Part shown: one piece after another, positions 22,610 through 38,285 of the stretch
Position numbering within the stretch: the stretch's first letter is position 1
How the letters are laid out: every line of letters starts with the position of its first letter
DNA from: Acidobacteriota bacterium
GTDB lineage: Bacteria; Acidobacteriota; Thermoanaerobaculia; Multivoradales; JAHZIX01
Assembly: GCA_039191605.1 (NCBI GenBank)
Contig: JBCCXL010000003.1
Location: 257,543 to 321,542, forward strand
Length of the DNA stretch: 64,000 nucleotides
Direction: 5' to 3'
Position numbers and translations under genes: made by a program
Notes under the pieces: generated by a model
What the model was told of the DNA's origin: nothing
The model's input: the letters and a program-made list of their open reading frames with translations, nothing else
Databases searched by the model: none

Positions 22610-23034
22610 GGGTTTGGAACCTGTGGCCGGGGCGCCCCACGGGGACATCTTGCCAACCATCAGCGCGCTGCCCGCTTAGCGGTTCTTATTTTCTTCACGG
22701 TAGCGTCGTGCTATTTTTGACGGTACTCATCTGCTCGCAGAGGGTCGCCTGAAGTTCTAGGGGACCCGCTTTTCAACCGAAGGCCCTGCAATAGGCTCTG
22801 CCGCCAGGAAGCATCGATTCCTCCAGGATCTGGACGGGCTGTTCTCTCTGGCAGCGCGGAGCGCGGCTGGAAGGGGGGCGCGTAAAGTCCGCTGAAACAA
22901 GACTTTCGCCACCAACATAGTGTGAACTAAAGGATCTTCCCTCAGCGAAGAATCCGGTAGTGCTCCCCCCTTCTGAAGACTCTGAAAAAAGAATACCTAA
23001 AGCCCCCGCGGCGGAAAATTTCTCACTACCTACG

Positions 23035-23730
23035 ATGATCCAGGAATTTGTCAACGCTCTGCTCGAGCCGCCAACGGTGCTCTTCACCTCCCTGCTGGTG
23101 GTGGTGGTGGTCTACTGGCTCACGGTGATTCTGGGCATTTTCGATCTGGACCTCTTCGACCTCGATCTCGACCTCGATGTCGGAGTGGACGGGGCGATGG
23201 AGGGGGTGGAAGGTGCGCTGGAGCTCGGCGATGCCCCCGAGATTGGAGATGCTGGCCCGACGGGAGTCGCCGGGCTGCTCACCGCCCTCGGTCTCGCGGG
23301 GGTTCCCCTCACCGTCACGCTTTCCTTCCTCATCGTCTTCTCCTGGTTCCTCACCTATCAGGGCATGCGGGTTCTGCCGCTGCTGGACCTCAGCGGCGGC
23401 TTGATTCGCTGGCTGCTGCTCCCGGTGGTCTCGGTGTTGGTCTCGCTGGGGCTGACGTCGGTGCTGGTTCGCCCGCTGCGGCCGGTGTTTCGCACCGTTC
23501 CGGCGGCCTCGAGGCAGGATTTCTCCGGCCGCTCGGCGACGGTGGTTTCCTCCCACGTCGACCGCGAGCAGGGACGAGCGGAGATCGACGATGGCGGCGC
23601 TGGGTTGCTGGTAGAGGCCCGGCTGGTGTCGGGAGCCCCGGCTCTCCGGGGGGACCAGGTGACGGTGGTGCGCTACGACAACGATCTTGACGTGTTCTTC
23701 ATCACTCGCCGGGACGAGAGCCTGCAATAG
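23035..23730 (+). CDS. YqiJ/NfeD-like inner-membrane protein (multi-TM N-terminal half, C-terminal OB-fold-like domain)
   Basis: The hydrophobic N-terminal half is ...LFTSLLVVVVVYWLTVILGIF... with further TM segments. The acidic (DL)n linker is DLDLFDLDLDLDVGVDG. The C-terminal beta-rich region ...GRAEIDDGGAGLLVEARLVSGAPALRGDQVTVVRYDNDLDVFFITR... is typical of the NfeD C-terminal domain. It is encoded immediately upstream of a flotillin gene, as in E. coli yqiJ-yqiK. The start is chosen at MIQEF (23035). Confidence 0.6.
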   Translation: MIQEFVNALLEPPTVLFTSLLVVVVVYWLTVILGIFDLDLFDLDLDLDVGVDGAMEGVEGALELGDAPEIGDAGPTGVAGLLTALGLAGVPLTVTLSFLIVFSWFLTYQGMRVLPLLDLSGGLIRWLLLPVVSVLVSLGLTSVLVRPLRPVFRTVPAASRQDFSGRSATVVSSHVDREQGRAEIDDGGAGLLVEARLVSGAPALRGDQVTVVRYDNDLDVFFITRRDESLQ

Positions 23731-23762
23731 GCTTCCTCGGCAGGTCCGGCGGAGCCGCCGCG

Positions 23763-23787
23763 CTGCACTGCACTGCACTGCACCGCA
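23763..23787. repeat. Pentanucleotide tandem repeat (ctgca)x4 plus a degenerate copy
   Basis: gctgcactgcactgcactgcaccgcacc, read directly. It lies upstream of the flotillin gene. Confidence 0.7.
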
Positions 23788-23835
23788 CCGTGGTGAGCTT
23801 CGTTCCCAGGGCCTCGACGACTAGGAAAGGATCCG

Positions 23836-25893
23836 ATGGTCACTCTTGGCATTATCGCCCTCGTGCTCTTCGGCATTTTCGTGCTGCTGGGTCTACTGGT
23901 TCTTGTCGCTCGCTTCTATAAGAAGGTGGAGCAAGGCAAGGCGCTGATCGTTAACAAGATGTCCGCCGAGCCGGAAGTCACCTTCACCGGGGCCGTCGTG
24001 TTGCCGGTGATCCACAAGGCGGAGGTGATGGATATCTCGGTGAAGACCATCGAGATCGATCGCCGCGGTCTCGACGGTCTGATCTGTCAGGACAACATCC
24101 GGGCGGACATCAAAGTCACCTTCTTCGTGCGGGTGAATAAGACCAAGGAAGACGTCATCAAGGTCGCGCAGGCCATCGGCTGTCAGCGAGCTTCAGATCC
24201 GGGGACCCTCGAGGTGCTCTTCAACGCCAAGTTCTCGGAAGCGCTGAAGACCGTCGGTAAGCAGCTCGACTTCGTCGACCTCTACACCAAGCGGGATGAG
24301 TTCCGGGATCAGATCATTCACGTCATCGGGCGTGACCTCAACGGCTACGTGCTGGAGGACGCGGCCATCGACTATCTCGAGCAGACCCCGCTGGAGAAGC
24401 TCGATCGGGACAACATCCTCGATGCCCAGGGCATTCGCAAGATCACCGAGCTGACGGCGATTCAGCACGTCGCCACCAACGATTTCCGCCGCGACGAAGA
24501 GAAGAAGATCAAGAAGCAGGACGTCGAGGCGCGGGAGACGATTCTCGCCCTGGAGCGTCAGCAGGCGGACGCCGAGGCGCGACAGCGCCGCGAGATCGAA
24601 ACCGTGAAGTCGCGGGAGGAAGCGGAGATCCTGCGAGTCGCGGCGGAGGAGCTGCAGAAATCAGAGACCGCTCGCCTGGACTCCCAGGAGCAGGTCGCGG
24701 TGCGCGAAGAGAATATGAAGCGCCAGGTGGAGGTCGCGGCGAAGAATCGCGAGCGGGTGGTGGCCATCGAGCAGGAGCGGGTGTTGAAAGACAGCTCCCT
24801 AGAGGCGATCAGCCGCGAGCGGGAGGTGGAGCTACAGCGCATCGCTAAAGAGAAGGAGCTCGAGAAGGAGCGTAAGGCCATCGCCGACGTGGTGCGGGAG
24901 CGCATCGCGGTGGACAAGACGGTGGCGGAAGAGGAAGAGGGCATCAAGCGCCTGCGGGTGATCGAGGAAGCGCGCCGCACCAAGGAGGCAGCGGTGCTGA
25001 TCGCTGAGGGCGCCGCGGAAGAAGCGCTGGTGAAGGACGTCAAGGCGGCGGAAGCGGCGGAAGCGGCGGCGAAGCACAAGGCTCGCGAGATGCAGGTGCT
25101 CGCCGACTCGGAGCTCGCGGTGGCGGACAAGGAAGCTCAGTCGAAGATTCGACTCGCCGACGGTACCCAGGCTGCCGCGGCCGCCGAGGGCTTGGCCAAG
25201 GTCAAGGTGAAGGAGGCGGACGCCGTCGCTACCGAGAAATACGGTCTAGCGGAGATTCGGGTGAAGGAGGCGGACGCCGCCGCCCTGCGCCAGGTCGGCA
25301 CCGCGGAGGCGGAAGTGGAGCGCGAGAAGGGGCTCGCCACCGCGTCGGCGCTGGAAGCCAAGCTGGAGGCGGAAGCCAAGGGCCTGCGCGAGAAGGCCGA
25401 TGCGATGGCCGCCCTGGATGAGGTCAGCCGCCAGCACGAGGAATATCGACTGCGACTGGAGACCGAGAAGGACATCGAGCTGCGCGCCATCGAGGCTCGC
25501 CGCCAGGTGGCCGAGGCGCAGGCAGAGATGCTCGCCACCGCGCTGTCCTCCGCGAATATCGATATCGTCGGCGGCGAGAGCATCTTTGTCGACCGCCTGA
25601 TGAGCTCGCTGTCCTCGGCCAAGTCCCTGGACGCCTTCATGGACCGCAGCGAGACCGCGAAGCTGGCTCTGAAGGATTACGTGGACGGCGGACGGAGCTT
25701 CGCCGGAGACGTGCGGGAGGTGCTGGCGCAGAGCGATCTCGGCTCCGAGGACCTCAAGAACCTCACCCTCGCGGGGCTCTTGTCCCGCCTTGCCCGAGGC
25801 AAGTCCGGCGAGCAGGCCGAGCGTCTCGGGGAGCTGGCAAAGTTGGTGAACGAGGCGGGACTCGGAAACCTGCGCGCTCGCCTGGACGATTGA
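23836..25893 (+). CDS. Flotillin family protein (SPFH/band-7 domain; YqiK-like) with long Ala/Glu/Lys-rich coiled-coil
   Basis: 685 aa. N-terminal TM, then the SPFH domain ...FYKKVEQGKALIVNKMSAEPEVTFTGAVVLPVIHKAEVMDISVKTIEIDRRGLDGLICQDNIRADIKVTFFVRV.... An extended EA-repeat coiled-coil follows, typical of bacterial flotillins. Confidence 0.85.
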   Translation: MVTLGIIALVLFGIFVLLGLLVLVARFYKKVEQGKALIVNKMSAEPEVTFTGAVVLPVIHKAEVMDISVKTIEIDRRGLDGLICQDNIRADIKVTFFVRVNKTKEDVIKVAQAIGCQRASDPGTLEVLFNAKFSEALKTVGKQLDFVDLYTKRDEFRDQIIHVIGRDLNGYVLEDAAIDYLEQTPLEKLDRDNILDAQGIRKITELTAIQHVATNDFRRDEEKKIKKQDVEARETILALERQQADAEARQRREIETVKSREEAEILRVAAEELQKSETARLDSQEQVAVREENMKRQVEVAAKNRERVVAIEQERVLKDSSLEAISREREVELQRIAKEKELEKERKAIADVVRERIAVDKTVAEEEEGIKRLRVIEEARRTKEAAVLIAEGAAEEALVKDVKAAEAAEAAAKHKAREMQVLADSELAVADKEAQSKIRLADGTQAAAAAEGLAKVKVKEADAVATEKYGLAEIRVKEADAAALRQVGTAEAEVEREKGLATASALEAKLEAEAKGLREKADAMAALDEVSRQHEEYRLRLETEKDIELRAIEARRQVAEAQAEMLATALSSANIDIVGGESIFVDRLMSSLSSAKSLDAFMDRSETAKLALKDYVDGGRSFAGDVREVLAQSDLGSEDLKNLTLAGLLSRLARGKSGEQAERLGELAKLVNEAGLGNLRARLDD

Positions 25894-25951
25894 GGGCTCG
25901 GCTCGATGACGATCCGCGATGCGTTCCTCCTCCGGTGATGAAGGATCGGTC

Positions 25952-28900
25952 ATGACGGACGATCCTAATCTCGCCCGAGACGGTGCTGCCGAGGAGGCTT
26001 CCGCTCAGGGGGCAGCGCCGGGGGATGGTGACGCCGCCCTGGAGCGCGGCACCTACGAGCTGCTTCGAGAGCGGCTTGAAGGGGCCGCGGCGGTGCTGCG
26101 GCAGCAGGCCCAGCAGCTCAACTCGGCTCGCCTCGAGACCTTCGGCTCCAGCGAGCTGACCCTCGCCGGCCAGAGCCGCATCCGCACCGAGCACAATTGC
26201 CGTCCGCGGGATATCGCTACCGTCGGGGAGCGGCTCATCGTCGGATACGAGGTGCATTTCGGCCTGCGGCGGGAGACCTCCGTCGGTCACGTCTTCAGCG
26301 TCCATCGCTTCGGCGCCGAGGAGGGGGCCGATGCGCCCCCTCATCTGGAGCCAGCCCGTCCGGGAGACGATGGATTCCTGCAGGATGAGCGCTTCGCCCG
26401 AGATTTCGAGGAGCTCTTCCGCTACTACAAAGACACCCGCCTGCTGCAGCTGCGCAACGTCGGCGATCGCCTCTTGGGGGTCTTCCAGGTGGGCACCCGC
26501 CTTTCAGACCTCAAGGTGTTTCGCTGGAGTCTGGATCCCGAGGGTGGCGTCAGCTACATCGACAATCGAGGCGAGCGGGACCATACCTTCGCCGCCGCCT
26601 ACGACTTCGAGTGGCAGGAGGTCAGTCGCGACAGCGTCGTGCCGGGCCGTCACCCGCACCTCTCCATCGAGGACGAGCTCTTCGTCGAGACCATCGGTGG
26701 GGATCTCACCATCAAGGTAGAGAACAACACCGAAGACGGGCTGGGGATCTATCAAGAGCCGGTCATCGACCCCGATCAGAGCCTGGATGACGCCGAGCTT
26801 CGCTACGCTCGGGTGGGATCATTGATCCTGCTCTCGGTGCTGCCCTATCGCGAGCCCCAGGCGCGCTATTTCGTCTACAACACCCGCAACCGCACGGTGC
26901 ACCGTATCGACGCCATCGGCCAATCCTGCCGGCAGCTGCCGGAGGACCACGGCCTGATCTTCCCCGGCGGCTACTACCTGACGGCGACGGATTCTCCCAA
27001 GACCTTCGATCTGCGCCTCGACGGCCTGGAGCTGAAGACTTCGGTGCGCTCCCCCAACGGGGAGGACGTGCTCTACATCTTCCACCAGCGCTCCGAGGGC
27101 CGCAGCGTGCTGCTGCCCTACAACCTGATCCGCAAGGCGGTGGCGACGCCCATCGAATGCTTCGGCTTCACTATTTTCGACGACGGTACGCTGGTGGTCT
27201 TCCGGGCGATCTCCGATGAGCCGTCGCGGGTGCATCCGCTGCAAATCTGGCGTACGCCCTTTGCCAAGGCCGAATTCTTCGAATCTCCCAGCGATGGCTC
27301 TCCGCTGCAGCGATTGGGCAACGCGGAGCTGGTGCGAGGGATCTCCGACGCGCTGTCCCTCGCCCAGCGGGTGATGGAGCAGGAGCCCTCGCGGCGGGTG
27401 TACGAAGATCTCATCGCCGCCGCCCGGCGGATGGAAGACGCCTACCACTGGCTGGGGGACGAAGCCTACGGTGGCCTCGGAGAGGCGGTCGCCGAGCTGG
27501 TGGTGCTGGCGGAGCAGGTGGTCGATGAATTTGAGAAGGTGGAGGCGCTGCGGGCGCGGGCTCACGACGAGGTCAACACCGCTGAGGCGGAGCTCGACGA
27601 GCTGCTGTCGGGCCTCGCGCCGAGCTCCATCGATCGGGTGGAGCCCTTTCTCGAGGCCCTCGCTCAGCTGCGCCGGGCCCGCGGGCATCTGATCACGCTG
27701 CGGGATCTGCGCTACGCTGACCTCGACCGCCTGGAGGCCCTAGAGCAGCGAGCTCAGGGGGCCTTCGACGAGGTCAGCGAGCACGCGGTGGCCTTCTTCG
27801 CCGAGCCGAAAGCCCTGGAGCCCTTCCGCCGTACCCTGGGAGAGCTGGAGAGCTCGGTGGAGGCGGTGAGCTCGCTACGGGAGATCGATCCGCTGGCCCA
27901 GCGGGTGGACGAGCAGGCCCAGGGGCTGGAGCTGCTGGCCCAGGTGACCTCCGGGCTAGAGAGCGACGACGCCACCGTGCGCACCCGCATCCTGGAAGGG
28001 GTGAGCGAGGTGCTGGGGCAGCTGAACCGGGTGCGGGCCATCGTAGACGCTCGTCGCCGCGAGGTCGGAGCGCGGGAGGCGCGGGCGGAATTCGGCGTGC
28101 AGTTCCAGCTTCTCGGCCAGTCCGCCGCCGGGGCTCTGGCGGTGGCGAGCACCCCCGAAGCCTGTGATGAACAGCTGGCCAAGGTGCTGCTGCAGCTGGA
28201 GGACCTGGAGGCGCGCTTCGGCGCCTACGACGACTTCCTGGAGCAGATCACCACCAAGCGCGACGATCTCTACGAGGCCTTCGCCAGCCGCAAGCAGCGA
28301 CTCCTGGACGAGCGTCAGCGGCGGGTGGAGCACCTCTTCGGCGCCGCCCAGCGGGTGCTGGAGGGTATGGAGCGAAGGGCCGAGAGCTTCGACGACGACG
28401 ACGACCTCAACGCCTTCTTCGCCTCCGACCCCCTCGCCGAGCGGCTGCGACGCCTCGGCGGTCAGCTTCGAGAGCTGGGGGCAGGAGTGCGGGCCGACGA
28501 GCTGGAGAGCCGGGTCAAGAGCGCGCGGCAGCAGGCCCGTCGGGGAATGCGGGATCGCCGCGACCTCTTTACCGCCGAGGGGGATCTCATCACCTTCGGC
28601 GCCCATCGCTTCACCGTCAACCAACAGGCTCTAGAGCCAACTCTGGTACCCCGCGGTGACGACCTGGTGCTGCATCTCACCAGCACGGAGTATTACGAGG
28701 CCCTCGAGGACGAGCGGGTACAGGCCGCCCATCAGCTTTGGGAGCAGAGCCTGCCCTCGGAGAGCGAGGAGGTTTACCGCGGGGAGTTCCTGGCCTATTC
28801 CGTGTGGGCGGATTCCTCGCTGCCGGATGATCAGCGCCCGTCTGGATTCCCCTCTCGCCGCGAGCTGGAGTCGGCCGTCGCCGAGGGGGTCGAGGGGCTC

Positions 28901-31654
28901 ACCGCAATCCTGCAGCCGCTGGCGGCTCAGCGCTATGAGGAGGGCTACGAGCGGGGGCTCCACGACGTCGACGGTGCGCGCATTCTCGAGAGTCTGCTAC
29001 AGCTCGACGCGACCGCCGGCCTGCTGCGATTCGAGCCCCAGCCGCGGGCTCTGGCGGCCCTCTTCTGGGCCGGAGCGGAGGAAGATGATCGCGGTCACCG
29101 GGAGCTTCGTCGGGAGATCCGGGATCGAGCCCAGGCGCTGCATCGATTGCGCTCCACCTATGGCGGGGGCCAGGCCGTCGAGGGCTTTCTGGCGGAGCTC
29201 AGCCAGGCGCTGAGGGCGTTTTGTGCCGAACAAGAGCTGCTGTGGGGGGCGGATGAGTCAGCGAATCTGGAGGATGCACCGCCGGAGATTCCGTCAGGGC
29301 ACCCGTCGGGGGCATCGGGAGTACCAGGGGCGCTGCTGCAGGAAGCCGCCGCCTACCTTTTCGAGGTTCTCGCCGTCTCGCCGCAGCGTTTCCCCATGGA
29401 GTCGGCGGCGCAGGAGTTGGTCGAAGCGGCGGAGCCCCGACTGAAGCGGGCCGGGGCCCTCGAGGATCTGCGCCGCGGTCCGCTGGGGCGCCGAGTACAG
29501 ATCGCCGAGGCCTGGCTCTCGGGGGTGGCTCGGGAGCTGGAGGCTGAAGCACCGGAGCGCCAGGGGGGAATCCACCTCGCCTTAGCGCCCGCTACCGCCC
29601 TGCTGCTGGCGGCGGATCGCTTTGACGTGGAGATCAGCCACGGCGCCCTCAGCGCCCGGGTGGAAGGGCTGCTCGGCCGCCACGGACGGATCGAGGAGCG
29701 CACCCTCGCCCTGCGCCTGGACCGCTTTCTCTCTCGCCTGCGAGAGTTTCGCCAGCAGCGGGTTCCGGCCTTCCAGCGCTGGCAGCGGGTGCGTCACGAG
29801 GTGCTGGAAGAGCAGCGCCGCCGTCTGCGCCTCGACTCCATGACCCCGAAGGTGATGAGCGCCTTCGTGCGCAATCAGCTGGTGGATCAGGTTTACCTTC
29901 CCCTGGTGGGAGCAAACCTGGCGAAGCAGATGGGCTCCGCCGGAGCGCAGCGGCGCACCGACCAAATGGGCCTGCTGCTGCTGCTCTCGCCTCCGGGCTA
30001 CGGTAAGACCACCCTGATGGAATACGTCGCCCATCGCCTGGGGCTGGCTTTCCTCAAGATCGACGGGCCCGCCTTGGGCCATGACGTGCATTCTCTGGAT
30101 CCAGCCCAGGCGCCTTCCGCCACCGCCCGGCGAGAGGTGGAGAAGATCAATCTCGCCTTCGAGATGGGCAACAACGTGCTGCTCTACCTGGACGACATCC
30201 AGCACACCCATCCTGAGCTGCTGCAGAAGTTCATCTCCCTCTGCGACGCCCAGCGGCGTATCGAGGGCGTCTTTCGCGGCGAGCCTCGCAGCTACGACCT
30301 ACGGGGTAAGCGCTTCGCGGTGGTGATGGCGGGCAACCCCTACACCGAATCCGGCGAGACCTTCCGCATTCCGGACATGCTGTCCAACCGCGCCGACGTC
30401 TACAACCTGGGCGACGTGCTGAACGGTAAGGAAGATCTCTTCGCCCTGAGCTACCTCGAGAACGCCCTCACCTCCAACGCGACCTTGAGCCCCTTGGCGA
30501 GCCGAGACTTGGCGGATGTCGGGCTCTACGTGCGCTTGGCGAAGGGGGAAACGGTGCCTCCGGATCGCTTCGCCCATGCGGTCACCGGCGCCGAGCGGGC
30601 TGACCTGCTGGCGGTATTGCGTCATCTGCTTCGGGTACAGAGTGTGTTGATGGCGGTCAACCAGGCCTATATTCGATCCGCCGCCCAGGTGGATGCCTAC
30701 CGCTCCGAGCCGCCCTTCCTGCTGCAGGGTAGCTATCGCAACATGAATAAGGTTGCGGAGCGGGTGGTGCCGGTGATGAACGAGGCGGAGCTCGAGGCGT
30801 TGATCGATGATCATTACCTCGGCGAGGCCCAGACTCTCACCACCGGAGCGGAGCACAATCTCTTGAAGCTCGCTTTCTTGCGGGGGCGTGAGACGGAGGA
30901 GCAAAAAGAGCGCTGGGATGCCATCTGCCGTGCCTATGCGCGAGTTCAGGCCAGCGGCGGAGATGCCGACCCGGCGTCGCGGGTGGTAGGGCAGCTGAGC
31001 CTGCTGACAGAGGGGGTCGCCCAGGTCGGCCAGACCTTGGCGTCGGCGGCACAGGGGGAGACAGCTCCCTCCGAGACGTCCTCCCCCTGGACCCCGGAGC
31101 TGGTGCGGAGCGCGGCGACGGAGCTCTCCGCCCACTGGTCTCAGCAGCTGTCCCGCCATTTAGGAGCGCAACTCGGTGAGCACCTCGGGGATCCCCTGGG
31201 GGAGCGGCTGGCGCCGGTGCTGAATCGCCTTTCGGAGCAGCTGGAGCAGGACCGCTCCCCCACCCCCGTGCCGCCTCCGCTACCGGCGGCGGCAAGAATC
31301 GATAGTGAAGCCTTGGCCTCCGCGCTGCGGGGACCCATCGAAGAGCTGGGGGCGCAATTCGCCGAAGTGGCCAAAGCTCTGAGCGAATCTTCTCGTCCCG
31401 CTGTCGTACAATCCCTATCCGGTAGTGTGCGCAATCTGTTGGATGATTTGGTGCGCACGGTGGAGGATTCTTTGCTCCCGGCGGTCAGGCGCCTCAATCG
31501 CCGGGTCGAGGATGCCGAGGATGCTGAGGGAAGACATCTCTCCTCTCAGATCGACCGAGCGCTTACCGATCTCGATCGCTTGAAGGATTTTGCTGCTACT
31601 CTTCGATCGTTGGATGCTTCTTCTTCGAAGCCTCCACAAGCAGACCTCAGCTAG
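25952..31654 (+). CDS. Giant (~1,900 aa) AAA+ ATPase of the bacterial 'DNA repair ATPase'/DUF3686-like family
   Basis: A single uninterrupted ORF. Walker A is LLLLSPPGYGKTTLMEY (GYGKTT at 29996-30013). Walker B-like is NVLLYLDDIQHT. Sensor-like is VVMAGNPYTESGETFRIPDMLSNRADVYN. The beta-rich N-terminal ~500 aa are followed by a long helical middle region. The start is chosen at MTDDPN (25952; GAAGGA ribosome-binding site). An alternative ATG lies at 25919. Confidence 0.75.
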   Translation: MTDDPNLARDGAAEEASAQGAAPGDGDAALERGTYELLRERLEGAAAVLRQQAQQLNSARLETFGSSELTLAGQSRIRTEHNCRPRDIATVGERLIVGYEVHFGLRRETSVGHVFSVHRFGAEEGADAPPHLEPARPGDDGFLQDERFARDFEELFRYYKDTRLLQLRNVGDRLLGVFQVGTRLSDLKVFRWSLDPEGGVSYIDNRGERDHTFAAAYDFEWQEVSRDSVVPGRHPHLSIEDELFVETIGGDLTIKVENNTEDGLGIYQEPVIDPDQSLDDAELRYARVGSLILLSVLPYREPQARYFVYNTRNRTVHRIDAIGQSCRQLPEDHGLIFPGGYYLTATDSPKTFDLRLDGLELKTSVRSPNGEDVLYIFHQRSEGRSVLLPYNLIRKAVATPIECFGFTIFDDGTLVVFRAISDEPSRVHPLQIWRTPFAKAEFFESPSDGSPLQRLGNAELVRGISDALSLAQRVMEQEPSRRVYEDLIAAARRMEDAYHWLGDEAYGGLGEAVAELVVLAEQVVDEFEKVEALRARAHDEVNTAEAELDELLSGLAPSSIDRVEPFLEALAQLRRARGHLITLRDLRYADLDRLEALEQRAQGAFDEVSEHAVAFFAEPKALEPFRRTLGELESSVEAVSSLREIDPLAQRVDEQAQGLELLAQVTSGLESDDATVRTRILEGVSEVLGQLNRVRAIVDARRREVGAREARAEFGVQFQLLGQSAAGALAVASTPEACDEQLAKVLLQLEDLEARFGAYDDFLEQITTKRDDLYEAFASRKQRLLDERQRRVEHLFGAAQRVLEGMERRAESFDDDDDLNAFFASDPLAERLRRLGGQLRELGAGVRADELESRVKSARQQARRGMRDRRDLFTAEGDLITFGAHRFTVNQQALEPTLVPRGDDLVLHLTSTEYYEALEDERVQAAHQLWEQSLPSESEEVYRGEFLAYSVWADSSLPDDQRPSGFPSRRELESAVAEGVEGLTAILQPLAAQRYEEGYERGLHDVDGARILESLLQLDATAGLLRFEPQPRALAALFWAGAEEDDRGHRELRREIRDRAQALHRLRSTYGGGQAVEGFLAELSQALRAFCAEQELLWGADESANLEDAPPEIPSGHPSGASGVPGALLQEAAAYLFEVLAVSPQRFPMESAAQELVEAAEPRLKRAGALEDLRRGPLGRRVQIAEAWLSGVARELEAEAPERQGGIHLALAPATALLLAADRFDVEISHGALSARVEGLLGRHGRIEERTLALRLDRFLSRLREFRQQRVPAFQRWQRVRHEVLEEQRRRLRLDSMTPKVMSAFVRNQLVDQVYLPLVGANLAKQMGSAGAQRRTDQMGLLLLLSPPGYGKTTLMEYVAHRLGLAFLKIDGPALGHDVHSLDPAQAPSATARREVEKINLAFEMGNNVLLYLDDIQHTHPELLQKFISLCDAQRRIEGVFRGEPRSYDLRGKRFAVVMAGNPYTESGETFRIPDMLSNRADVYNLGDVLNGKEDLFALSYLENALTSNATLSPLASRDLADVGLYVRLAKGETVPPDRFAHAVTGAERADLLAVLRHLLRVQSVLMAVNQAYIRSAAQVDAYRSEPPFLLQGSYRNMNKVAERVVPVMNEAELEALIDDHYLGEAQTLTTGAEHNLLKLAFLRGRETEEQKERWDAICRAYARVQASGGDADPASRVVGQLSLLTEGVAQVGQTLASAAQGETAPSETSSPWTPELVRSAATELSAHWSQQLSRHLGAQLGEHLGDPLGERLAPVLNRLSEQLEQDRSPTPVPPPLPAAARIDSEALASALRGPIEELGAQFAEVAKALSESSRPAVVQSLSGSVRNLLDDLVRTVEDSLLPAVRRLNRRVEDAEDAEGRHLSSQIDRALTDLDRLKDFAATLRSLDASSSKPPQADLS

Positions 31655-31751
31655 TTGTCGCTGGGTCTACCTCATCCCTAGATCGCCACGAGGCTTCGCG
31701 TAATCTGTCTTGCCTCGTGCCCTTTATTGCCGCGAAGTAAAGGAGAATTCC

Positions 31752-33689
31752 GTGAATGAACCTCTGCCTCCTTATCTGCGATCCGCGCTGTTCGTAGATT
31801 TCGACAACATCTACATCCGATTACGCGAAGAAAGTGAAGAGGCCGCCGAGCATTTCGCTTCGGAGCCCCACCGTTGGCTCCGCTGGCTCGAAGAAGAGGC
31901 GCCGATGGTGGATGACCGCTTCCTCGATACCAAGGATCTGCCCCGGCGGATTCTGCTTCGCCGCTGCTATCTCAACCCCCGATCCTTCCATCAGAGCCGC
32001 CCTGCCTTTGTTCGGGCTGGCTTCGAGGTGGTGGACTGTCCGCCGCTGACTCACGGTGGCAAGACCAGCAGCGATATCCGCATGGTGATGGACATGATGG
32101 ATGCTCTATCCCACCCCAGCACCCGCTTCGACGAGATGATTCTCTTCTCCGGGGATGCGGACTTCACGCCGATCTTCACTCGCTTGCGGGCCAATGATCG
32201 CTTTACCGTGGCTCTGATCGTCGGCCAGGCCTCTTCCGCCTACCGCTCCGCCTGCGATCTCCTGCTCAGCGCCGACGAATTTGTCGAATCGGGGCTGGGG
32301 GTCTCCGGTGAAGCCCTGGAGGCTCGCCGAGAGGCTCCAACCCGCCTGCGCCCCCTGCTGGAAGGGATGCACGGCACCGTCGCCGATGCGGTGGCCAGCA
32401 CCGGGCCGGTGCCGGCGGATCGGCTGCCGATGATTTACAAGGAGTTCTCGGAGTTCCGCGAGGGTTCCGACTGGCTGGGCTTCATGAGTCTGCGGGGGCT
32501 TACGGAGGCCGTCGTTGAGGCCGGTAGCGGTCTCGTGCTGCGGGAAGAAGACCCCTGGGTCGTCGACTACGGACAGACCCCGGTGGTGAATCGTGGCGAG
32601 TCGGCGGTGCCTGCATCTGGCCCCAGCCCCAGCCCGAGCTCGGGCCCCAGCCTGGGCCCCGGTCCGTCCGCTCCTCCGCCTACCGGTTGGCGCAGCGATT
32701 TCGGCGAGCGCGCCGCGGCGGTGGTGCGGGCAGCGGTGGTCGAGTCCGACGAGCCGCTGAGCCTCGCGGGTCTCTCCCATCGCCTGATGCGCGAGCTGGG
32801 GGAAGGGGTGCGCTCCCGCGCCTGGCAGGGCGCCGGCTCTTTCCGCGCCTTCCTCGAGGGGCTAGACCTCGAAGGCCTGGAGATCTCCCGGGTCACGCCG
32901 GGCTACGTGTATGACCCGGTGCGCCATGACCCGCCGGCGGAGGCCCGCGACGGGGACGAATTCGCCCGCCGCTACCCGGAGCTTTCGGAGCTCGCCCGGC
33001 GCATTCATGACGCCACCGACGCGCCCTACCTGATGCCTGACGTGTACGCGGTGATGATGCGGGTCATCGCCGAGGAGATCAACGAGCGGGGCTACCACCT
33101 GGTGCGGACCTCCAAGGCGGTGCGCGACATCTGCAACGGCAAGGGTGTTCCGGTGGCCCGCTCCCACGTTTCTTTCGTCCTCAAGGGCATCCAATACTCG
33201 GGTTATTCCTATCGCCAGGGTCAGGAGAGCGCCCAGGAGCTGGGCCGAGCCTTCGTCCAGAACCTGCTCTTCCTCTGCGATCGTGCCGAGCTCTCTTTGT
33301 CAGATGACGAGAGCGACGCCGTGCGCCGCTGGATCCTCGCTCCCATCGACTACTCCCCAGGAGCCTCCGCCTCGCCGAGCCCTCCCGCTACGAGCTCCCG
33401 CCCGTCGACCTCCTCCGATGAGAGTTGGGAAGAAGACGACGAGTACGAGGACTACGACGAAGAGGACGATTGGGACGGCGAGGACGAGGAAGGTGACGAA
33501 CCCGACGCCGATCCCGACGCCGAAGCCTCCGACGAGGACGAGGACGAGGAGGACTTCGACGACGAGGAAGACGACGAAGAAGACGACGAAGAAGACGAGG
33601 ATGAGGGCGACGAGGACGACGACGAAGACGAGGATGAGGACGACGACGAAGACGACGATGACGAAGAAGAGGACGACAAGGACGATTGA
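31752..33689 (+). CDS. NYN-domain (LabA-like PIN-fold) protein with OST-HTH/LOTUS-like repeats and ~90-aa polyacidic C-terminal tail
   Basis: The NYN signature is ALFVDFDNIYI...SSDIRMVMDMMDALSHPSTRFDEMILFSGDADFTPIF...FTVALIV. The middle and C-terminal segments (…LPMIYKEFSEFREGSDWLGFMSLRGLTEAV… and …LSLAGLSHRLMRELGEGVRSRAWQGAGSFRAFLEG…) resemble OST-HTH modules. The tail is an uninterrupted D/E run. The GTG start at 31752 sits 6 nt after AAGGAG. The ORF track's TTG at 31710 is less likely. Confidence 0.75.
   Translation: MNEPLPPYLRSALFVDFDNIYIRLREESEEAAEHFASEPHRWLRWLEEEAPMVDDRFLDTKDLPRRILLRRCYLNPRSFHQSRPAFVRAGFEVVDCPPLTHGGKTSSDIRMVMDMMDALSHPSTRFDEMILFSGDADFTPIFTRLRANDRFTVALIVGQASSAYRSACDLLLSADEFVESGLGVSGEALEARREAPTRLRPLLEGMHGTVADAVASTGPVPADRLPMIYKEFSEFREGSDWLGFMSLRGLTEAVVEAGSGLVLREEDPWVVDYGQTPVVNRGESAVPASGPSPSPSSGPSLGPGPSAPPPTGWRSDFGERAAAVVRAAVVESDEPLSLAGLSHRLMRELGEGVRSRAWQGAGSFRAFLEGLDLEGLEISRVTPGYVYDPVRHDPPAEARDGDEFARRYPELSELARRIHDATDAPYLMPDVYAVMMRVIAEEINERGYHLVRTSKAVRDICNGKGVPVARSHVSFVLKGIQYSGYSYRQGQESAQELGRAFVQNLLFLCDRAELSLSDDESDAVRRWILAPIDYSPGASASPSPPATSSRPSTSSDESWEEDDEYEDYDEEDDWDGEDEEGDEPDADPDAEASDEDEDEEDFDDEEDDEEDDEEDEDEGDEDDDEDEDEDDDEDDDDEEEDDKDD
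33420..33686 (+). repeat. Low-complexity GA[CGA]-codon run encoding the D/E-rich tail of the NYN protein
   Basis: ...DEEDDWDGEDEEGDEPDADPDAEASDEDEDEEDFDDEEDDEEDDEEDEDEGDEDDDEDEDEDDDEDDDDEEEDDKDD. Confidence 0.9.
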
Positions 33690-33775
33690 TCGAGGCCTAG
33701 CCTCGGTGAGCTCCTTCTCCTAGCCTCACGACATCTCTTCGCATCTCCCCGCGCTCTGGCCGCGAACTCATCTAC

Positions 33776-34276
33776 ATGTTCAAGAAGCCACAGCGCATCG
33801 AGCCCGGCCCGGGGCAGGAATCGGTTTGGGACTACCCCCGACCGCCTCGGGTCGAGCCCTCCTCCCAGAAAATCGAGATCGTCTTCGGTGGTCGCACCAT
33901 CGCCACCACCGAAAGCAGCCAGCGGGTTCTAGAGACCAGCCATCCTCCGGTCTACTACCTGCCCCAGGACGCCTTCGTCGAGGGCGTCCTGCGTCCCAAC
34001 TCCAAACAAACCTTCTGCGAGTTCAAAGGCTCGGCGAGTTACTTCGACCTCGTCGTCGGCGAGCAAGTCGGCGTCGCCGCCGCCTGGTACTACCCTCGCC
34101 CCGTCGCCCGCGCCGTCGCCCTCACTGACCTCGTCGCCGTCTACCCTGGGCGCATGGACGCCTGCTTCGTCGACGGCGAGCAAGTCCAGGCCCAGGCCGG
34201 CGACTTCTACGGCGGCTGGATCACCAGCGCCATCGTCGGACCCTTCAAAGGCGCCTCCGGCACGTGGGGGTGGTGA
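33776..34276 (+). CDS. Hypothetical protein, DUF427-like
   Basis: 166 aa (…ESVWDYPRPPRVEPS…VYYLPQDAF…AAAWYYPRP…). The family call rests on resemblance to the DUF427 consensus. Confidence 0.4.
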   Translation: MFKKPQRIEPGPGQESVWDYPRPPRVEPSSQKIEIVFGGRTIATTESSQRVLETSHPPVYYLPQDAFVEGVLRPNSKQTFCEFKGSASYFDLVVGEQVGVAAAWYYPRPVARAVALTDLVAVYPGRMDACFVDGEQVQAQAGDFYGGWITSAIVGPFKGASGTWGW

Positions 34277-34424
34277 GGAGGGGTTGGTGATTCGCTAGAG
34301 ATGAGCGCTTTCGCAGGATCTGAAGTTCAGCTACTCTGTCTTTGGAAACCGCTACTACCAGCTAGATTTTCGAAGCGAGATTCTCGAAGAGATTTCAGCT
34401 GAACGATCTCCTGAAGGAGCCTCA

Positions 34425-34826
34425 ATGCGCTACCTAGTTTTGATCGGAGTCACCCTGTGGCTGTTGGTCCTGGTGACTCCCGCAGTGCTTGCAGTCCCTG
34501 TTGGTGAGAGCGACTCGCCCAACTCGCCATCGGAGAGCTGGGCGGGTCAATCGGTGGCGGAAAGCCCTTCGATCTCCACTCCTTCCGAGTCGGTCTTCCT
34601 TCCCGGCGCGAGCGCTGGTGGGGCGGGTCGACAAGGAGATCTCGAGCCGCAGGAGTATCGTGTCTGCGGCGCATCCTGCACCAAGATCACCGGGCTATGC
34701 GCCTGTGCTTTCGATCCGCTGGATTGCTGTGATGGCAAGGCTTGCGCGGCCTTCAATCTCTGCGAGTTCACGGGAGCACAGAAAGCACCGCAGAGAACGA
34801 ATTCCAGCAGTCAGTCCAGCGACTGA
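34425..34826 (+). CDS. Small secreted cysteine-rich protein (133-aa precursor; 9 Cys within ~35 aa)
   Basis: GAAGGAG ribosome-binding site. The signal peptide is MRYLVLIGVTLWLLVLVTPAVLA. After a Ser/Pro-rich region comes the Cys cluster CGASCTKITGLCACAFDPLDCCDGKACAAFNLCEF. Confidence 0.5.
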   Translation: MRYLVLIGVTLWLLVLVTPAVLAVPVGESDSPNSPSESWAGQSVAESPSISTPSESVFLPGASAGGAGRQGDLEPQEYRVCGASCTKITGLCACAFDPLDCCDGKACAAFNLCEFTGAQKAPQRTNSSSQSSD

Positions 34827-34849
34827 GCTGGAGCCTTCATTGGAATCTC

Positions 34850-37285
34850 ATGGACTGGCGCTGGCTCATTTCCTTGGCGGCTCTCCTCGTGTTGGGCGCC
34901 GGCGAGGCGAAGGCGGAGCAATCCTTCCGATTCCTGCTGGTGCCGGAAGCGCATTGGGCTTCAGGGCAGCCTGATGTCAGCGCGGCCCTAGATACAGGGC
35001 AGGTCTATCTGTATCGAGCGGGCGCCTATCGCCCTGAGTTTGTGGCATCGGCCGGAGAGAGCATTTCTCTTCCTGCTGGCGTGTGGCATTGGGTGGCGGA
35101 GTCCGAAGGGTGGGTGAGTGTCGCTTCCGGCCGGCTGGAGATTCCGCTGGGTCGGGTGGGAGCTGAACAGACGCTGATTTGGCCGGTAGTGCCGGCATGC
35201 CGCCTGGAATTAGGATCCATCGCCGGGTGGCAGGGGGTGGAGCGAGTGGACGCGCTGAGCCTCGACCGGTCCACCGTTCATCCCGTGGCGCCGCTGGACC
35301 GGCTAGAAGTCAACGTCCCGGCGGGCCGCTATCTGGTAACCGTCTACGGTGGTCGCGGGCTCGAAGCGATATCGGCCATCGCTCGGTGTCGGGCTGGGGA
35401 GGCTGTCCGGCTCACGAGACCGGAGGTTCCGACGGACACGGTAGATCTCCTGGTGCACGGGCACTGGCCCGGAGGCGCGGAACCGTCGAGGGATACGGAG
35501 GACGACGCTCTCGTCCTCGGCGTTCATGAGCGAGGCTCCGGCCGCCTGGTGCGCCTCGCCGAGGTCGACTTGCGGGTGGGAAGTCGCTCCTCCTTCGTCG
35601 TTCGGAATCTGCCGATGGATCAGGATCTCGAGCTTCGCTGGTCTCACCCAAGTCTGCGCAGCGGCAGCCGGGAGATACCCTCTGACCGCTCCGGGGCCCG
35701 CGAGATGGAAGAGATCCTCTGGCGCCCGCGGGCTGCCGTGGAGGTGCCGGTGGAGTATCTACCGCTCCAGGAGCATGAGGAAGCTCGGCTGTGGATTTCC
35801 CGCTGCGGCGACGGGGCGGTCCAGGACTTCTTGGAAGTGGACTTCGCTGAGTGTCGCGATGTGACGCAAACTCAGCCTCTGAACCAGGGTTTGGGGCGCT
35901 ATCGCTTCGAGGGTCTCGACCTTGGTTGGCACGTAGTGATGGCTCAGGTGGACGACGATTGGATTCCCGGTCTCGGTGAGGCCGTTGCGCTGCAGGTTCT
36001 CGACGCAACGCCGAACCTCGTTGAGCTGGAACCTGCTGCCCTAGAAGAGCTGCGAATTGAGGGCCGCATCTTGTTGGACGGCGAGGCGACCGTCGGCGAG
36101 GTCCGTCTACTGCCTCAGGCGACGCTTCCCGGGACGCCGAGGATCTTCGCCACCGCGGAAGATCTGCGCTACCAGATGACCTTCTTTGCCGAGACTCCCA
36201 CTCGTTTCTACCGCTCTCGCCTGCCCGAAACGCTGCGGGGGCGTTCTGACGCCGAGCTTCGGGGTCTCTTCGTTCGCTACCGGCTGCTCGTCTGTCCAGA
36301 GGTCAATGACGCTGAGGCGGACGAAATCCATCTTGGCGGGTGCCATGCCATTCACCCTCGCTCTACTTTCTCCGGTGGCGGAACGATGGATCTCGAGCTC
36401 TCTGGCCGCTCTCTGCGGGTGGAGCTGGTCGACGACAGCAGCGGCGAGCCCATCGATGGTCGAGGGACTCGAGCTGGGGTGGTCGCTCGCCCCCGAGCTG
36501 GAGCGGCCTACGACACGCTGCATTTCTTTCATGGCGAGATCTATCGTCGTGAGGCTGCTTCCTTCGAAGCAGCGCCGGTTGCTGTCGATGGCGAGGGCAT
36601 CGCTCTTCTTCATGGCGTGAGCGAGGGAGAGATCGTTGTCGTGGCGGTCGCCGATGGCTACCGGCGGGCGGAGCTTTCCGTGGCCGCTGATGTGCACGAG
36701 GCGAGTCTGCGTCTCGAGCGAGACCCCGAATCGGGGCCGGCGGCGATCACATTGGAGCTTCCCTCAGCTTCTGGCGGCCTAGGCGGAGCTCGCGAACCCG
36801 CCGCCGGCGCCTACTTGGTGGCCGCCGGCGCCCTGGGATCCCTACCTAGATGTCACCAGCGCTCCGACCGAGGGGGCCGAGTGAACTGGCCCGGCAGCTG
36901 CCCAACTCAGGGCCTGCGCCGGGCTCTGGTCTTCCATCCTCGTGTTCCGGTACAGGCCGTACGTCTCGTCTTCTTGCCGCCGGACCGCCGAGTGCCGCTC
37001 GTTGCGGGCCCCGCCCGCCCGGTGGAGCTGTGGACTCGCGATCTCAGCGGCCTACCAGCGCCACGGGAACCGGTGGATTGGCGTATCGACGGCATCCTGC
37101 TCAATGCTGATACTGCCTTGCGGGCCCTCAGTGCTAGTGGATCAACGCTTCCCTTTCGCACCGATGCGCAGGGGCGTCTCGATTTTCTGGCGACGGCTGG
37201 AGCCAAGGTCGAGGCCCGTCCTCGGCAGGGAGATGAATGGACTTCGTGGATTCCCGGAGAGCCTCTGGATTTGATCATCCCCTAG
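34850..37285 (+). CDS. Large secreted protein of unknown function (~811 aa)
   Basis: Long ORF with the signal peptide MDWRWLISLAALLVLGAGEAKA. No recognisable catalytic motifs. The start is chosen at the internal Met at 34850, which avoids overlap with the upstream Cys-rich gene. Confidence 0.5.
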   Translation: MDWRWLISLAALLVLGAGEAKAEQSFRFLLVPEAHWASGQPDVSAALDTGQVYLYRAGAYRPEFVASAGESISLPAGVWHWVAESEGWVSVASGRLEIPLGRVGAEQTLIWPVVPACRLELGSIAGWQGVERVDALSLDRSTVHPVAPLDRLEVNVPAGRYLVTVYGGRGLEAISAIARCRAGEAVRLTRPEVPTDTVDLLVHGHWPGGAEPSRDTEDDALVLGVHERGSGRLVRLAEVDLRVGSRSSFVVRNLPMDQDLELRWSHPSLRSGSREIPSDRSGAREMEEILWRPRAAVEVPVEYLPLQEHEEARLWISRCGDGAVQDFLEVDFAECRDVTQTQPLNQGLGRYRFEGLDLGWHVVMAQVDDDWIPGLGEAVALQVLDATPNLVELEPAALEELRIEGRILLDGEATVGEVRLLPQATLPGTPRIFATAEDLRYQMTFFAETPTRFYRSRLPETLRGRSDAELRGLFVRYRLLVCPEVNDAEADEIHLGGCHAIHPRSTFSGGGTMDLELSGRSLRVELVDDSSGEPIDGRGTRAGVVARPRAGAAYDTLHFFHGEIYRREAASFEAAPVAVDGEGIALLHGVSEGEIVVVAVADGYRRAELSVAADVHEASLRLERDPESGPAAITLELPSASGGLGGAREPAAGAYLVAAGALGSLPRCHQRSDRGGRVNWPGSCPTQGLRRALVFHPRVPVQAVRLVFLPPDRRVPLVAGPARPVELWTRDLSGLPAPREPVDWRIDGILLNADTALRALSASGSTLPFRTDAQGRLDFLATAGAKVEARPRQGDEWTSWIPGEPLDLIIP

Positions 37286-37317: not shown

Positions 37318-37362
37318 CTTTGTCGTCTTGGGCTTTGTCGTCTTGAGCTTTGTATCTTCAGG
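37318..37362. repeat. ~15-bp tandem direct repeat (ctttgtcgtcttgRg x2 plus a partial copy)
   Basis: Read directly. It lies upstream of the exonuclease III gene. Confidence 0.7.
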
Positions 37363-37412
37363 AGGGTCTTGGGGAGCCTACCCGAGGCCAGAATCCGATA
37401 TCCTCCGGCGCG

Positions 37413-38285
37413 ATGAAGAACGACACGACGACTTCCCACAGCGTCTCTGATTCCAACAGCATCGAGGGCCGCCCCGTGGGGGCAAACGAGGTGCGCCTGG
37501 TCTCCTGGAACGTGAATGGCCTGAGGGCGGCTTTGCGTAAGGGCTTTCTGGACTGGCTCCAGGGCAGCGATGCGGAGATCGTCGGGATCCAGGAGACTCG
37601 GGTTTTAGACGAGCAGCTGACGAAAGCGGCCCGCGAGCCAGAAGGCTGGCATTTTCATCTCCACGCCGCGGAGCGCCCGGGCTACAGCGGGGTCGGCCTC
37701 TACTCCCGGAGCGCTCCGGACGCGGTGGAGACCTCCATGGGGGAGGATCGCTTCGACATCGAAGGGCGGATCCAGATCGCCCGCTTCGGTCAGCTGCTGC
37801 TGGTCAACGGCTACTTCCCCAACGGCAACGGCAAGAATCGGGATCTATCCCGCATTCCCTACAAGCTGGACTTCTACCGCGGCCTCTTCGATCTGCTGGA
37901 GCCGGCGCGGGAGCGGGATATGCCGATCCTGGTGATGGGGGATTGGAATACCTGTCATCGACCGGAAGATCTGGCGCGACCGAAGCAGAACGAGAAGACC
38001 AGCGGTTTTCGCCCGGAAGAGAGGGAAGAGCTGGATCGCTGGATGCGGGAAGGCTGGGTGGACACCTTCCGCCACTTCCATCCGCAGGCGACGGGGCGCT
38101 ATAGCTGGTGGAGCCAGCGGGGCAACGTGCGGGAGCGCAACATTGGCTGGCGGCTGGATTTCTTCCTCGCGTCGGAGGCGGCCCTCCCCTACCTGCGGGG
38201 CGCGGCGATTCACGATCAGGTGCTGGGCTCCGATCACTGCCCGGTGAGCGTCACCGTCGATCGGGAGCTGCTGACGAGCTCATAG
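37413..38285 (+). CDS. xthA: Exodeoxyribonuclease III (AP endonuclease family 1)
   Basis: ...VRLVSWNVNGLRA...VGIQETR...YFPNG...WRLDFFLAS...GSDHCPV matches the XthA and APE1 catalytic motifs. The start may lie further downstream, for example the GTG at VRLVSW. Confidence 0.85.
   Translation: MKNDTTTSHSVSDSNSIEGRPVGANEVRLVSWNVNGLRAALRKGFLDWLQGSDAEIVGIQETRVLDEQLTKAAREPEGWHFHLHAAERPGYSGVGLYSRSAPDAVETSMGEDRFDIEGRIQIARFGQLLLVNGYFPNGNGKNRDLSRIPYKLDFYRGLFDLLEPARERDMPILVMGDWNTCHRPEDLARPKQNEKTSGFRPEEREELDRWMREGWVDTFRHFHPQATGRYSWWSQRGNVRERNIGWRLDFFLASEAALPYLRGAAIHDQVLGSDHCPVSVTVDRELLTSS

Follow-up and report, generated by a model that had tools for sequence, protein, structure and literature searches.

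A predicted stand-alone ribonuclease with an NYN domain, two divergent OST-HTH modules and a dense polyacidic tail in an Acidobacteriota genome

What does a bacterium do with a nuclease-like protein whose last 90 residues are mostly aspartate and glutamate, and does that protein work with the giant ATPase encoded just ahead of it? These questions are raised by a gene on a stretch of 64,000 nucleotides from an Acidobacteriota bacterium (contig JBCCXL010000003.1, positions 257,543 to 321,542), which as a whole we call the window; the gene's product, of 645 amino acids (aa), is called the window protein. A first-pass annotation, made by a model from the sequence letters and a list of open reading frames, had described an NYN-domain protein with OST-HTH-like repeats and an acidic tail, and had proposed a partnership with the ATPase. 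In our reading, the gene encodes a stand-alone, metal-dependent ribonuclease (RNase) of the kind that joins an LK-nuclease domain (NYN/DUF88) to duplicated OST-HTH modules, and its tail would serve as a regulatory mimic of nucleic acid. For this statement as a whole we estimate a probability of roughly 0.6. The architecture (an NYN domain, two divergent OST-HTH winged helices, a helical C-terminal domain specific to the family, and a disordered acidic tail), taken jointly with the absence of a link to the ATPase, we hold with high confidence. The features on which the argument depends are the following, all on the plus strand.

31740..31745, plus strand: Shine-Dalgarno sequence AAGGAG, 6 nt before the GTG, read directly in the sequence
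31752..33689, plus strand: coding sequence, 645 aa and a TGA stop, with GTG 31752 as the preferred start
31776..32294, plus strand: NYN/LK-nuclease (DUF88) domain, aa 9-181, from Pfam, the AlphaFold2 (AF2) model and Foldseek
32334..32579, plus strand: module 1, aa 195-276, a winged helix and divergent OST-HTH with the motif WLGFxSLRxxTE
32580..32684, plus strand: disordered Pro/Ser/Gly linker, aa 277-311, with a predicted local distance difference test score (pLDDT) below 50 at aa 277-309
32685..32927, plus strand: module 2, aa 312-392, a winged helix and divergent OST-HTH that repeats module 1, with the motif WxGAGSFxxxLE
32928..33356, plus strand: module 3, aa 393-535, a conserved helical domain with pLDDT mostly above 90, not OST-HTH
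33357..33416, plus strand: Ser/Pro-rich disordered linker, aa 536-555, from pLDDT below 50 and composition
33417..33686, plus strand: polyacidic tail, aa 556-645, 90 residues of which 42 are Asp and 32 Glu

The mechanically called open reading frame (ORF) runs from 31710 to 33689 on the plus strand and opens with TTG, and the first-pass annotation had preferred the in-frame GTG at 31752. The N-termini of 36 aligned homologues agree with that choice. Their conserved part opens at 'YLRSALFVDFDN', preceded in the homologues by only about 8-12 residues, and the 14 residues that would be gained by using the TTG have no counterpart among them. Since both the Shine-Dalgarno spacing and the homologue N-termini fit GTG 31752, we take it to be the most likely translation start.

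The identity of the N-terminal domain is the firmest part of the picture. The Pfam family NYN (PF01936) matches aa 10-170 at E=6e-19 (the score is 69.4 bits and the cut-off 24.2), it matches all 37 aligned homologues as well, and the motifs FVDFDN, GKTSSD and SGDADF are all present. An AF2 model of the protein, computed from an alignment of 37 sequences, has a mean pLDDT of 82.9. When its N-terminal domain is searched with Foldseek, the matches include VPA0982 (2qip; E=1.3e-5, with a template-modelling (TM) score on the target of 0.75) and the NYN domain of MARF1 from mouse and from human (5yaa/6fdl; TM 0.75-0.79). With the Pfam match and these fold matches in agreement, the NYN (PIN-fold) identity first read from the acidic-residue pattern is confirmed, and the domain is a bona fide NYN/LK-nuclease.

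The active site is largely intact too. Six residues, D16, N19, D108, S133, D135 and D137, are invariant in the 37-sequence alignment: D16 and N19 form the DxxN of beta1, D108 is the Asp that opens helix 3, and S133 and D135 are the SxD after beta4. D16, N19, D108, S133 and D135, together with D137, correspond to MARF1 D178, N181, D246, S270 and D272, all of which are required for RNA cleavage (PMC6217404). The first-pass annotation had named loss of the conserved NYN aspartates as a sign of an inactive domain; in the alignment the acidic residues are kept, except that the Asp of beta2 is an invariant Asn, a substitution weighed below. Judged from these residues, the protein is likely to have metal-dependent nuclease activity.

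Behind the NYN domain, scans with Pfam, NCBIfam and PADLOC gave no usable match, and PDB sequence-profile searches, run for the family as a whole and module by module, returned noise only, except for 2qip at E=0.05. The AF2 secondary structure nevertheless follows, in modules 1 and 2 alike, the winged helix-turn-helix (wHTH) order: a helix, a short strand, two or three helices, and a beta-hairpin wing. Aligned against each other with hhalign the two modules match at E=2.1e-5, and by this comparison they are homologous repeats; the linker between them (aa 277-311) varies in length in the alignment of homologues. A separate structure model of aa 190-392 was used for a Foldseek search of the pair. 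All of the matches are winged helices, all at E>0.06, and the LOTUS domains of TDRD5 (3s93, TM 0.57) and TDRD7 (3rco, TM 0.56) appear among Z-alpha, forkhead, ESCRT-II and Egalitarian structures. By itself, then, Foldseek points to a winged-helix fold in the model, not to OST-HTH/LOTUS specifically.

The assignment to OST-HTH comes from profile-profile comparison. Against five PDB-verified eukaryotic LOTUS sequences, hhalign gave no significant match for either module (E=0.04 and 0.14), and for that reason we turned to a published bacterial reference, the 17 bacterial OST-HTH sequences that accompany, as Additional file 1, the paper in which the domain was defined (PMC2848206). As controls we used 150 column shuffles, reversed profiles, and a eukaryotic LOTUS profile as the positive control. 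Against the bacterial set, the score is 26.8 for module 1 (E=8.8e-5) and 19.9 for module 2 (E=2.4e-3). Not one of the 150 shuffles reaches the observed score for either module (module 1: mean 10.4+/-2.0, maximum 17.0; module 2: mean 10.2+/-2.05, maximum 17.6), the reversed profiles score 13.1 and 11.7, and the positive control scores 24.3. The register is also the expected one, in that the module motifs WLGFxSLR and WxGAGSFK fall on the OST-HTH 'YGyxxL' motif ('hGh.ph.phl'). From these profile comparisons we conclude that the protein carries two divergent OST-HTH modules, not three. The first-pass annotation had allowed for two to three: two of them stand on the comparison with the published bacterial set, and the third falls away, as module 3 stays at the level of noise.

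Some members of the family do have a third copy. In homologues P0009, P0016 and P0075, and in many others of 640-780 aa, an extra copy of module 1 gives three OST-HTH-like modules; module 1 has therefore been duplicated recurrently. Module 2, for its part, shows a weak likeness to the winged helix with which Egalitarian binds RNA, seen in Pfam WH_Egal for 2 of 27 members (E=0.025) and in Foldseek for 9rw3 (E about 0.1), neither of which is significant.

Module 3 was considered as a third OST-HTH and rejected, its hhalign score of 12.3 being at noise level; it is unrelated to modules 1 and 2 by hhalign, and it is matched by no Pfam family and no PDB sequence. It is a conserved domain all the same, with K455, R458, D459 and R470 invariant. 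Among 1.84 billion representatives its profile finds 786 proteins, and in these it lies nearly always C-terminal to an NYN domain. An exception is P0279 (947 aa), in which module 3 stands at the C-terminus of a protein that lacks NYN, alongside an ORC/CDC6-like ATPase and a cold-shock domain. The domain company in P0279 hints that module 3 may be an independent domain related to nucleic acids.

We turn now to the tail. Asp or Glu makes up 74 of its 90 residues (82%), for a net charge of about -73, and 74 of its 90 codons are GAC, GAG, GAA or GAT. It is the only tract with at least 18 D/E per 30 aa in any ORF of at least 100 aa, in all six frames of the whole window. The tail is thus acidic and mostly GAN-encoded, as had been noted from the letters, but it is neither pure nor uninterrupted: residues W, Y, F, G, P, A, S and K are scattered through it, and D/E alone extends over 23 aa at most. 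Nor is its DNA the clean GA[CGA] codon repeat that had been described; it is a degenerate repeat, with periods of 9, 12, 24 and 33 nt and 74-80% matches.

How widely is this tail shared? The homologue search returned 1832 matches, and the family extends over Acidobacteriota, Chloroflexota, Myxococcota and Desulfobacterota. The closest homologues, which we took as the best 120, are 41-53% identical to the window protein, and no relative above about 53% identity was found in any collection searched, the best matches lying at 47-53%. Among these 120 a comparably polyacidic tail occurs in P0077 alone (56 aa, 80% D/E), and that of P0053 is semi-acidic. The nearest relatives, P0001 and P0002, have no comparable tail, and a neighbour-joining tree places P0077 in a different clade, not as sister of the window protein. 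The dense tails of the two proteins thus probably arose independently, to judge from the tree.

The acidity itself is a different matter. Tails of at least 15 aa are net-negative in 85 of 88 homologues, in 21 of 23 representatives chosen for diversity and, for the metagenome loci, in 45 of 45. K and R make up about 5% of residues in the tails of the family, and tail length varies between 0 and over 400 aa. At the long end, P0241, P0306 and P0323 (871-1062 aa) carry low-complexity acidic C-terminal extensions of 342-430 aa with net charges of -83 to -91. Because very different tail lengths reach similar charges (-73 to -91), it appears to be the negative charge that is maintained, not the sequence; what the family shares is a disordered, net-acidic extension in which charge is conserved and sequence is not. 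The first-pass annotation had proposed looking for the tail in homologues, and the result is divided: a comparably dense tail is missing from nearly all of them, and a net-acidic tail is the rule. On these counts, acidity is a trait of the family, and the tail of the window protein its densest and most compact form.

The nearest known relatives of this architecture are bacterial proteins with an LK-nuclease and OST-HTH, such as NE0665 and VPA0982 (2qip), in which an N-terminal NYN domain is likewise followed by a duplicated winged-helix OST-HTH, and which likewise have no gene neighbourhood conserved across phyla (PMC2848206). The stereotype described for bacteria is an OST-HTH, either single or in duplicate, after DUF88, without conserved neighbours, and such proteins are predicted to be stand-alone RNA-degrading enzymes (PMC2848206). 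The window protein follows it, with two copies directly C-terminal to the LK-nuclease. It differs from those relatives in four respects: its two wHTH modules are too divergent for the Pfam OST-HTH model PF12872, it adds a conserved helical domain of 140 aa that belongs to no known family, it adds a disordered acidic tail of 90 aa with 82% D/E, and its beta2 Asp is Asn. A plain member of the present family, Tmz1t_0056 of Thauera, was already in the LK-nuclease alignment of PMC2848206, where its gi number occurs in the nuclease alignment only and not in the list of OST-HTH proteins. Our literature search found no report of a characterised bacterial member with NYN and OST-HTH. Such bacterial proteins are thought to be ancestral to RNases of the MARF1 type.

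MARF1 (Limkain b1) is accordingly the best guide to mechanism. It shares with the window protein the NYN fold, the active-site D, N, D and SxD, and the joining of a nuclease to LOTUS/OST-HTH modules that bind RNA, which MARF1 needs in order to cleave single-stranded RNA (PMC6217404). Unlike the window protein, MARF1 has RRM domains, eight LOTUS repeats, no acidic tail and all four catalytic Asp, and it is a eukaryotic, germline-specific protein; the function of such proteins outside mammals was given as unknown in the same paper (PMC6217404). For the tail, the closest parallel is the acidic C-terminal domain (CTD) of E. coli Hfq, an autoinhibitory mimic of nucleic acid (PMC5606850), and D/E repeats, too, are described as autoinhibiting nucleic-acid-binding proteins (PMC10250230). 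Here too a disordered acidic C-terminus is joined through a flexible linker to domains that bind nucleic acid, and acidity is kept where sequence is not. The acidic tip of Hfq is about 6 residues long, as against a tail of 90 here. In addition, unlike Hfq and the D/E-repeat proteins, the window protein has a core that is not globally basic (isoelectric point, pI, about 5).

By analogy with these systems, the protein might work as follows. The winged-helix modules, and probably module 3 too, would bind structured RNA and hand it over to the active site of the NYN domain, in the manner of the LOTUS modules of MARF1, and the NYN domain would cleave the RNA so recruited. The acidic tail would fold back electrostatically onto conserved basic residues of the nucleic-acid-binding surfaces, and would act there as a tethered mimic of nucleic acid, either suppressing non-specific binding of RNA or DNA or restraining the nuclease, as in the Hfq CTD and the D/E repeats. 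The tail of 90 aa and 82% D/E would then be a compact, lineage-specific extreme of a family trait, probably grown by slippage on GAN codons. A regulatory role for the tail, which we propose by analogy, has in our estimate somewhat less than an even chance of being right.

Several results weigh against the reading as a whole. With regard to the modules, the Pfam check proposed in the first-pass annotation came back empty: PF12872 has no match at E<=10 in aa 187-556 of the window protein, none at E<=1 in 37 full-length homologues, and none at E<=10 in the isolated modules (0 of 27 for module 1, 0 of 27 for module 2). In Foldseek the E-values for LOTUS structures exceed 1, no better than those of other winged helices. 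With regard to the nuclease, the fourth catalytic Asp, which lies at the end of beta2 and corresponds to MARF1 D215, is replaced by Asn75 (in CYLNP), invariant in the 37 sequences, and because of this nuclease activity is not guaranteed. With regard to the tail, the globular core is acidic too (pI about 5, net -23), which leaves the tail no global charge complementarity to exploit. A tail that balances a basic core was considered and rejected on this ground, and autoinhibition would need local, conserved basic residues such as R248, K455, R458, R470 and others. Finally, none of the homologue genes that we read in 160 loci, from genomes and metagenomes, has a tail as dense; and since only one of the 120 close homologues has one, a dense tail must be dispensable for the core function of the family.

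The rarity of the dense tail leads to the alternative that survives best, namely that the tail is a neutral, low-complexity expansion: slippage on GAN codons would have lengthened a disordered, tolerant C-terminus, and no regulatory role would be involved. In its favour, the DNA is a degenerate repeat of 9, 12, 24 and 33 nt, the only similar tail among the 120 belongs to P0077 in a different clade with P0001 and P0002 lacking one, and tail length in the family is so variable (0 to over 400 aa). A neutral expansion does not explain, however, why the sign of the charge almost never flips in the three samples given above or why K and R stay at about 5%, nor why total charge is so similar at such different lengths. 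Moreover, at 74-80% matches the repeats are degenerate, so the expansion is not recent. We regard a purely neutral tail as unlikely, though it is to be taken seriously.

Could the protein instead be an RNA-binding regulator or scaffold, its NYN domain catalytically impaired by Asn75? In the published alignment the column of Asn75 aligns with the Asp of YCDW/YGDF in canonical LK-nucleases, where the present family has YLNP with its Asn invariant in 37 sequences, and the equivalent MARF1 mutation, D215A, abolishes cleavage, so that D215 is essential there (PMC6217404). On the other hand, the beta2 Asp lies outside the 90% consensus of the published LK-nuclease alignment, in which members such as Vapar_0857 also have Asn (PMC2848206). 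All of the remaining active-site residues of the family are invariant. Asn is itself capable of ligating a metal ion. An impaired enzyme thus seems improbable to us, and we retain the reading of the protein as an RNase.

A further alternative is suggested by the genes that lie next to the NYN gene in relatives. We collected 161 loci with an NYN homologue (80 genome loci, 1 extra and 80 metagenome loci), about 87 of which extend 6 kb or more upstream. A DUF2750 gene (Pfam E=5.6e-22), encoded on the same strand, immediately follows the NYN gene in 29-30 of the 80 loci from genomes and in 37 of the 80 from metagenomes. The pairing is seen in L004-L044, L061, L073, L087/L088 and 37 of L089-L168. 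The gap between the two genes is often 3-22 nt, or the genes overlap. In L087/L088 three genes follow one another, NYN, a gene of 154 aa with no Pfam match, and DUF2750, with overlapping stops and starts and between different flanking genes. In polymorphic toxin systems DUF2750 is known as Imm16 (PMC3482391), and the DUF2750 proteins are very acidic, with about 27 D/E against 8 K/R in 128 aa. The recurrent, often translationally coupled pair suggests, from gene order, a nuclease-inhibitor operon in Acidobacteriota. In one locus (L025, 10001-12016) the NYN homologue runs in frame into DUF2750-like sequence within an ORF of 672 aa, which reflects either a real fusion of NYN with DUF2750 or an indel error in a metagenome-assembled genome built from long reads.

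On this alternative the window protein is a toxin-like or conflict RNase, which Imm16/DUF2750 neutralises in trans in the relatives, and which here is held in check by its dense tail or by an unlinked factor. The recurrence of DUF2750 behind the NYN gene, the trio in L087/L088, the identity with Imm16 and the acidity of the DUF2750 proteins all favour it, as does the fact that the 64-kb window holds no DUF2750 homologue, tblastn giving nothing better than E=1. The alternative nevertheless meets several difficulties. Every DUF2750-linked genome locus that carries an organism name (among L001-L080) comes from Acidobacteriota, so the pairing may reflect gene order passed down by descent, and members from Chloroflexota, Myxococcota and Geomonas have neither DUF2750 nor long tails. 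Homologues accompanied by DUF2750 have the longer and more acidic tails (medians of 35 aa and 11 D/E, as against 8 aa and 1 D/E in those without it; p=4e-7, a comparison confounded by phylogeny), which is the opposite of simple substitution; a tail standing in for an absent DUF2750 is therefore not supported, with the same caveat of phylogeny. The only NYN match in PADLOC is below threshold (E=9e-4). Unlike the Imm16 toxin-immunity pairs, the window has no DUF2750 and the NYN protein lacks any domain for secretion or for toxin delivery, and Imm16 has been described with Ntox8, not with NYN (PMC3482391). We consider a toxin-like function improbable. More speculative still, and doubtful in our judgement, is the generalisation that the whole NYN-OST-HTH family is a latent, potentially toxic RNase gated by polyanions, of which the window protein would be a single-polypeptide form, a 'toxin plus tethered antitoxin'. 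If that were true, many Acidobacteriota would use a coupled, acidic Imm16/DUF2750 together with a moderately acidic tail as the gate, the gate of this lineage would be a built-in poly-Asp/Glu mimic of nucleic acid 90 residues long, and release might be triggered by proteolysis of the tail, by a surge of cations or by competing foreign nucleic acid.

There remains the giant ATPase. The genes and other features around the NYN gene in the window are these.

20815-22257: xseA (exonuclease VII large subunit), upstream of the ATPase module
22960..31654, plus strand: three-gene module (context only), encoding a 256-aa protein, a 685-aa protein and the 1911-aa ATPase
31687..31719, plus strand: hairpin (CACGAGGC...GCCTCGTG) with a perfect 8-bp stem, in the 97-nt gap after the ATPase gene, adjoining TTG 31710
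33776-34276: DUF427 protein, downstream neighbour
34742-37285: 847-aa protein of no Pfam family, downstream neighbour
37350-38285: endonuclease/exonuclease/phosphatase-family protein, downstream neighbour

The ATPase gene itself occupies 25919..31654 on the plus strand, encodes DUF3686, DUF7902 and AAA domains (Pfam), and ends 97 nt before GTG 31752. The product is named 'DNA repair ATPase' by NCBI, and a literature search for DUF3686 found no paper. Its two upstream companions have no Pfam match; the 685-aa protein has an N-terminal transmembrane helix, an SPFH/flotillin-like region and a long coiled coil of Glu, Ala, Arg and Lys, and is 53-61% identical across phyla. The three-gene module is syntenic in L082, L083, L085 and L086, from Acidobacteria, Actinomycetota (Paractinoplanes) and other phyla. 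The NYN gene takes no part in this synteny. Neither the ATPase nor its 685-aa partner is near the NYN homologue in any of the 161 loci, and none of the 4 ATPase loci with a downstream flank has an NYN gene. The partnership inferred by the first-pass annotation from position thus finds no echo elsewhere, and from gene order the adjacency in the window is best read as coincidental. The DUF427, 847-aa, endonuclease/exonuclease/phosphatase and xseA neighbours are not syntenic with NYN homologues either.

The gap between the two genes deserves a brief description. Consensus scans of 23500-35000 found no sigma-70 promoter, and only one terminator-like match, at 29198-29214 inside the ATPase gene, with none around the NYN gene; Rfam has no match in the window. 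The terminator scan does not report the hairpin at 31687-31719, which does appear in the RNA fold of 31645-31760, though that fold is not significant against shuffled sequence (z=-1.19); on this weak evidence the hairpin may mark the end of the upstream transcription unit. In the same predicted fold (z=-1.19, not significant) a second, small hairpin at 31721-31743 pairs CCUUUAUU with the beginning of the Shine-Dalgarno region, and according to that model it could affect initiation of translation. It is accordingly very improbable that the NYN protein works with the DUF3686/AAA ATPase as its partner or effector: the shared strand, the 97-nt gap and the lack of a consensus terminator or sigma-70 promoter between the genes make co-transcription possible, but the ATPase or its 685-aa partner is absent from all 161 homologue loci, the NYN gene is absent from all 4 ATPase loci, the ATPase has conserved upstream partners of its own in the 256-aa and flotillin-like 685-aa proteins, and a perfect 8-bp hairpin stands in the gap.

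The finding thus refines a known kind of system. It is a solid annotation with one curious, extreme feature, and not a new kind of system. A misleading guilt-by-association with the giant ATPase is removed, and DUF2750/Imm16 is recognised as the real recurrent neighbour in relatives. For the family, the results mean that a large and widespread subfamily (1832 homologue matches, 786 representatives with module 3) carries OST-HTH modules that current Pfam models miss, together with an unannotated conserved domain, module 3. Net-acidic disordered tails are nearly universal in this family, and the window protein, with the densest of them, offers a convenient construct for testing whether such a tail may regulate an RNase or its binding of RNA.

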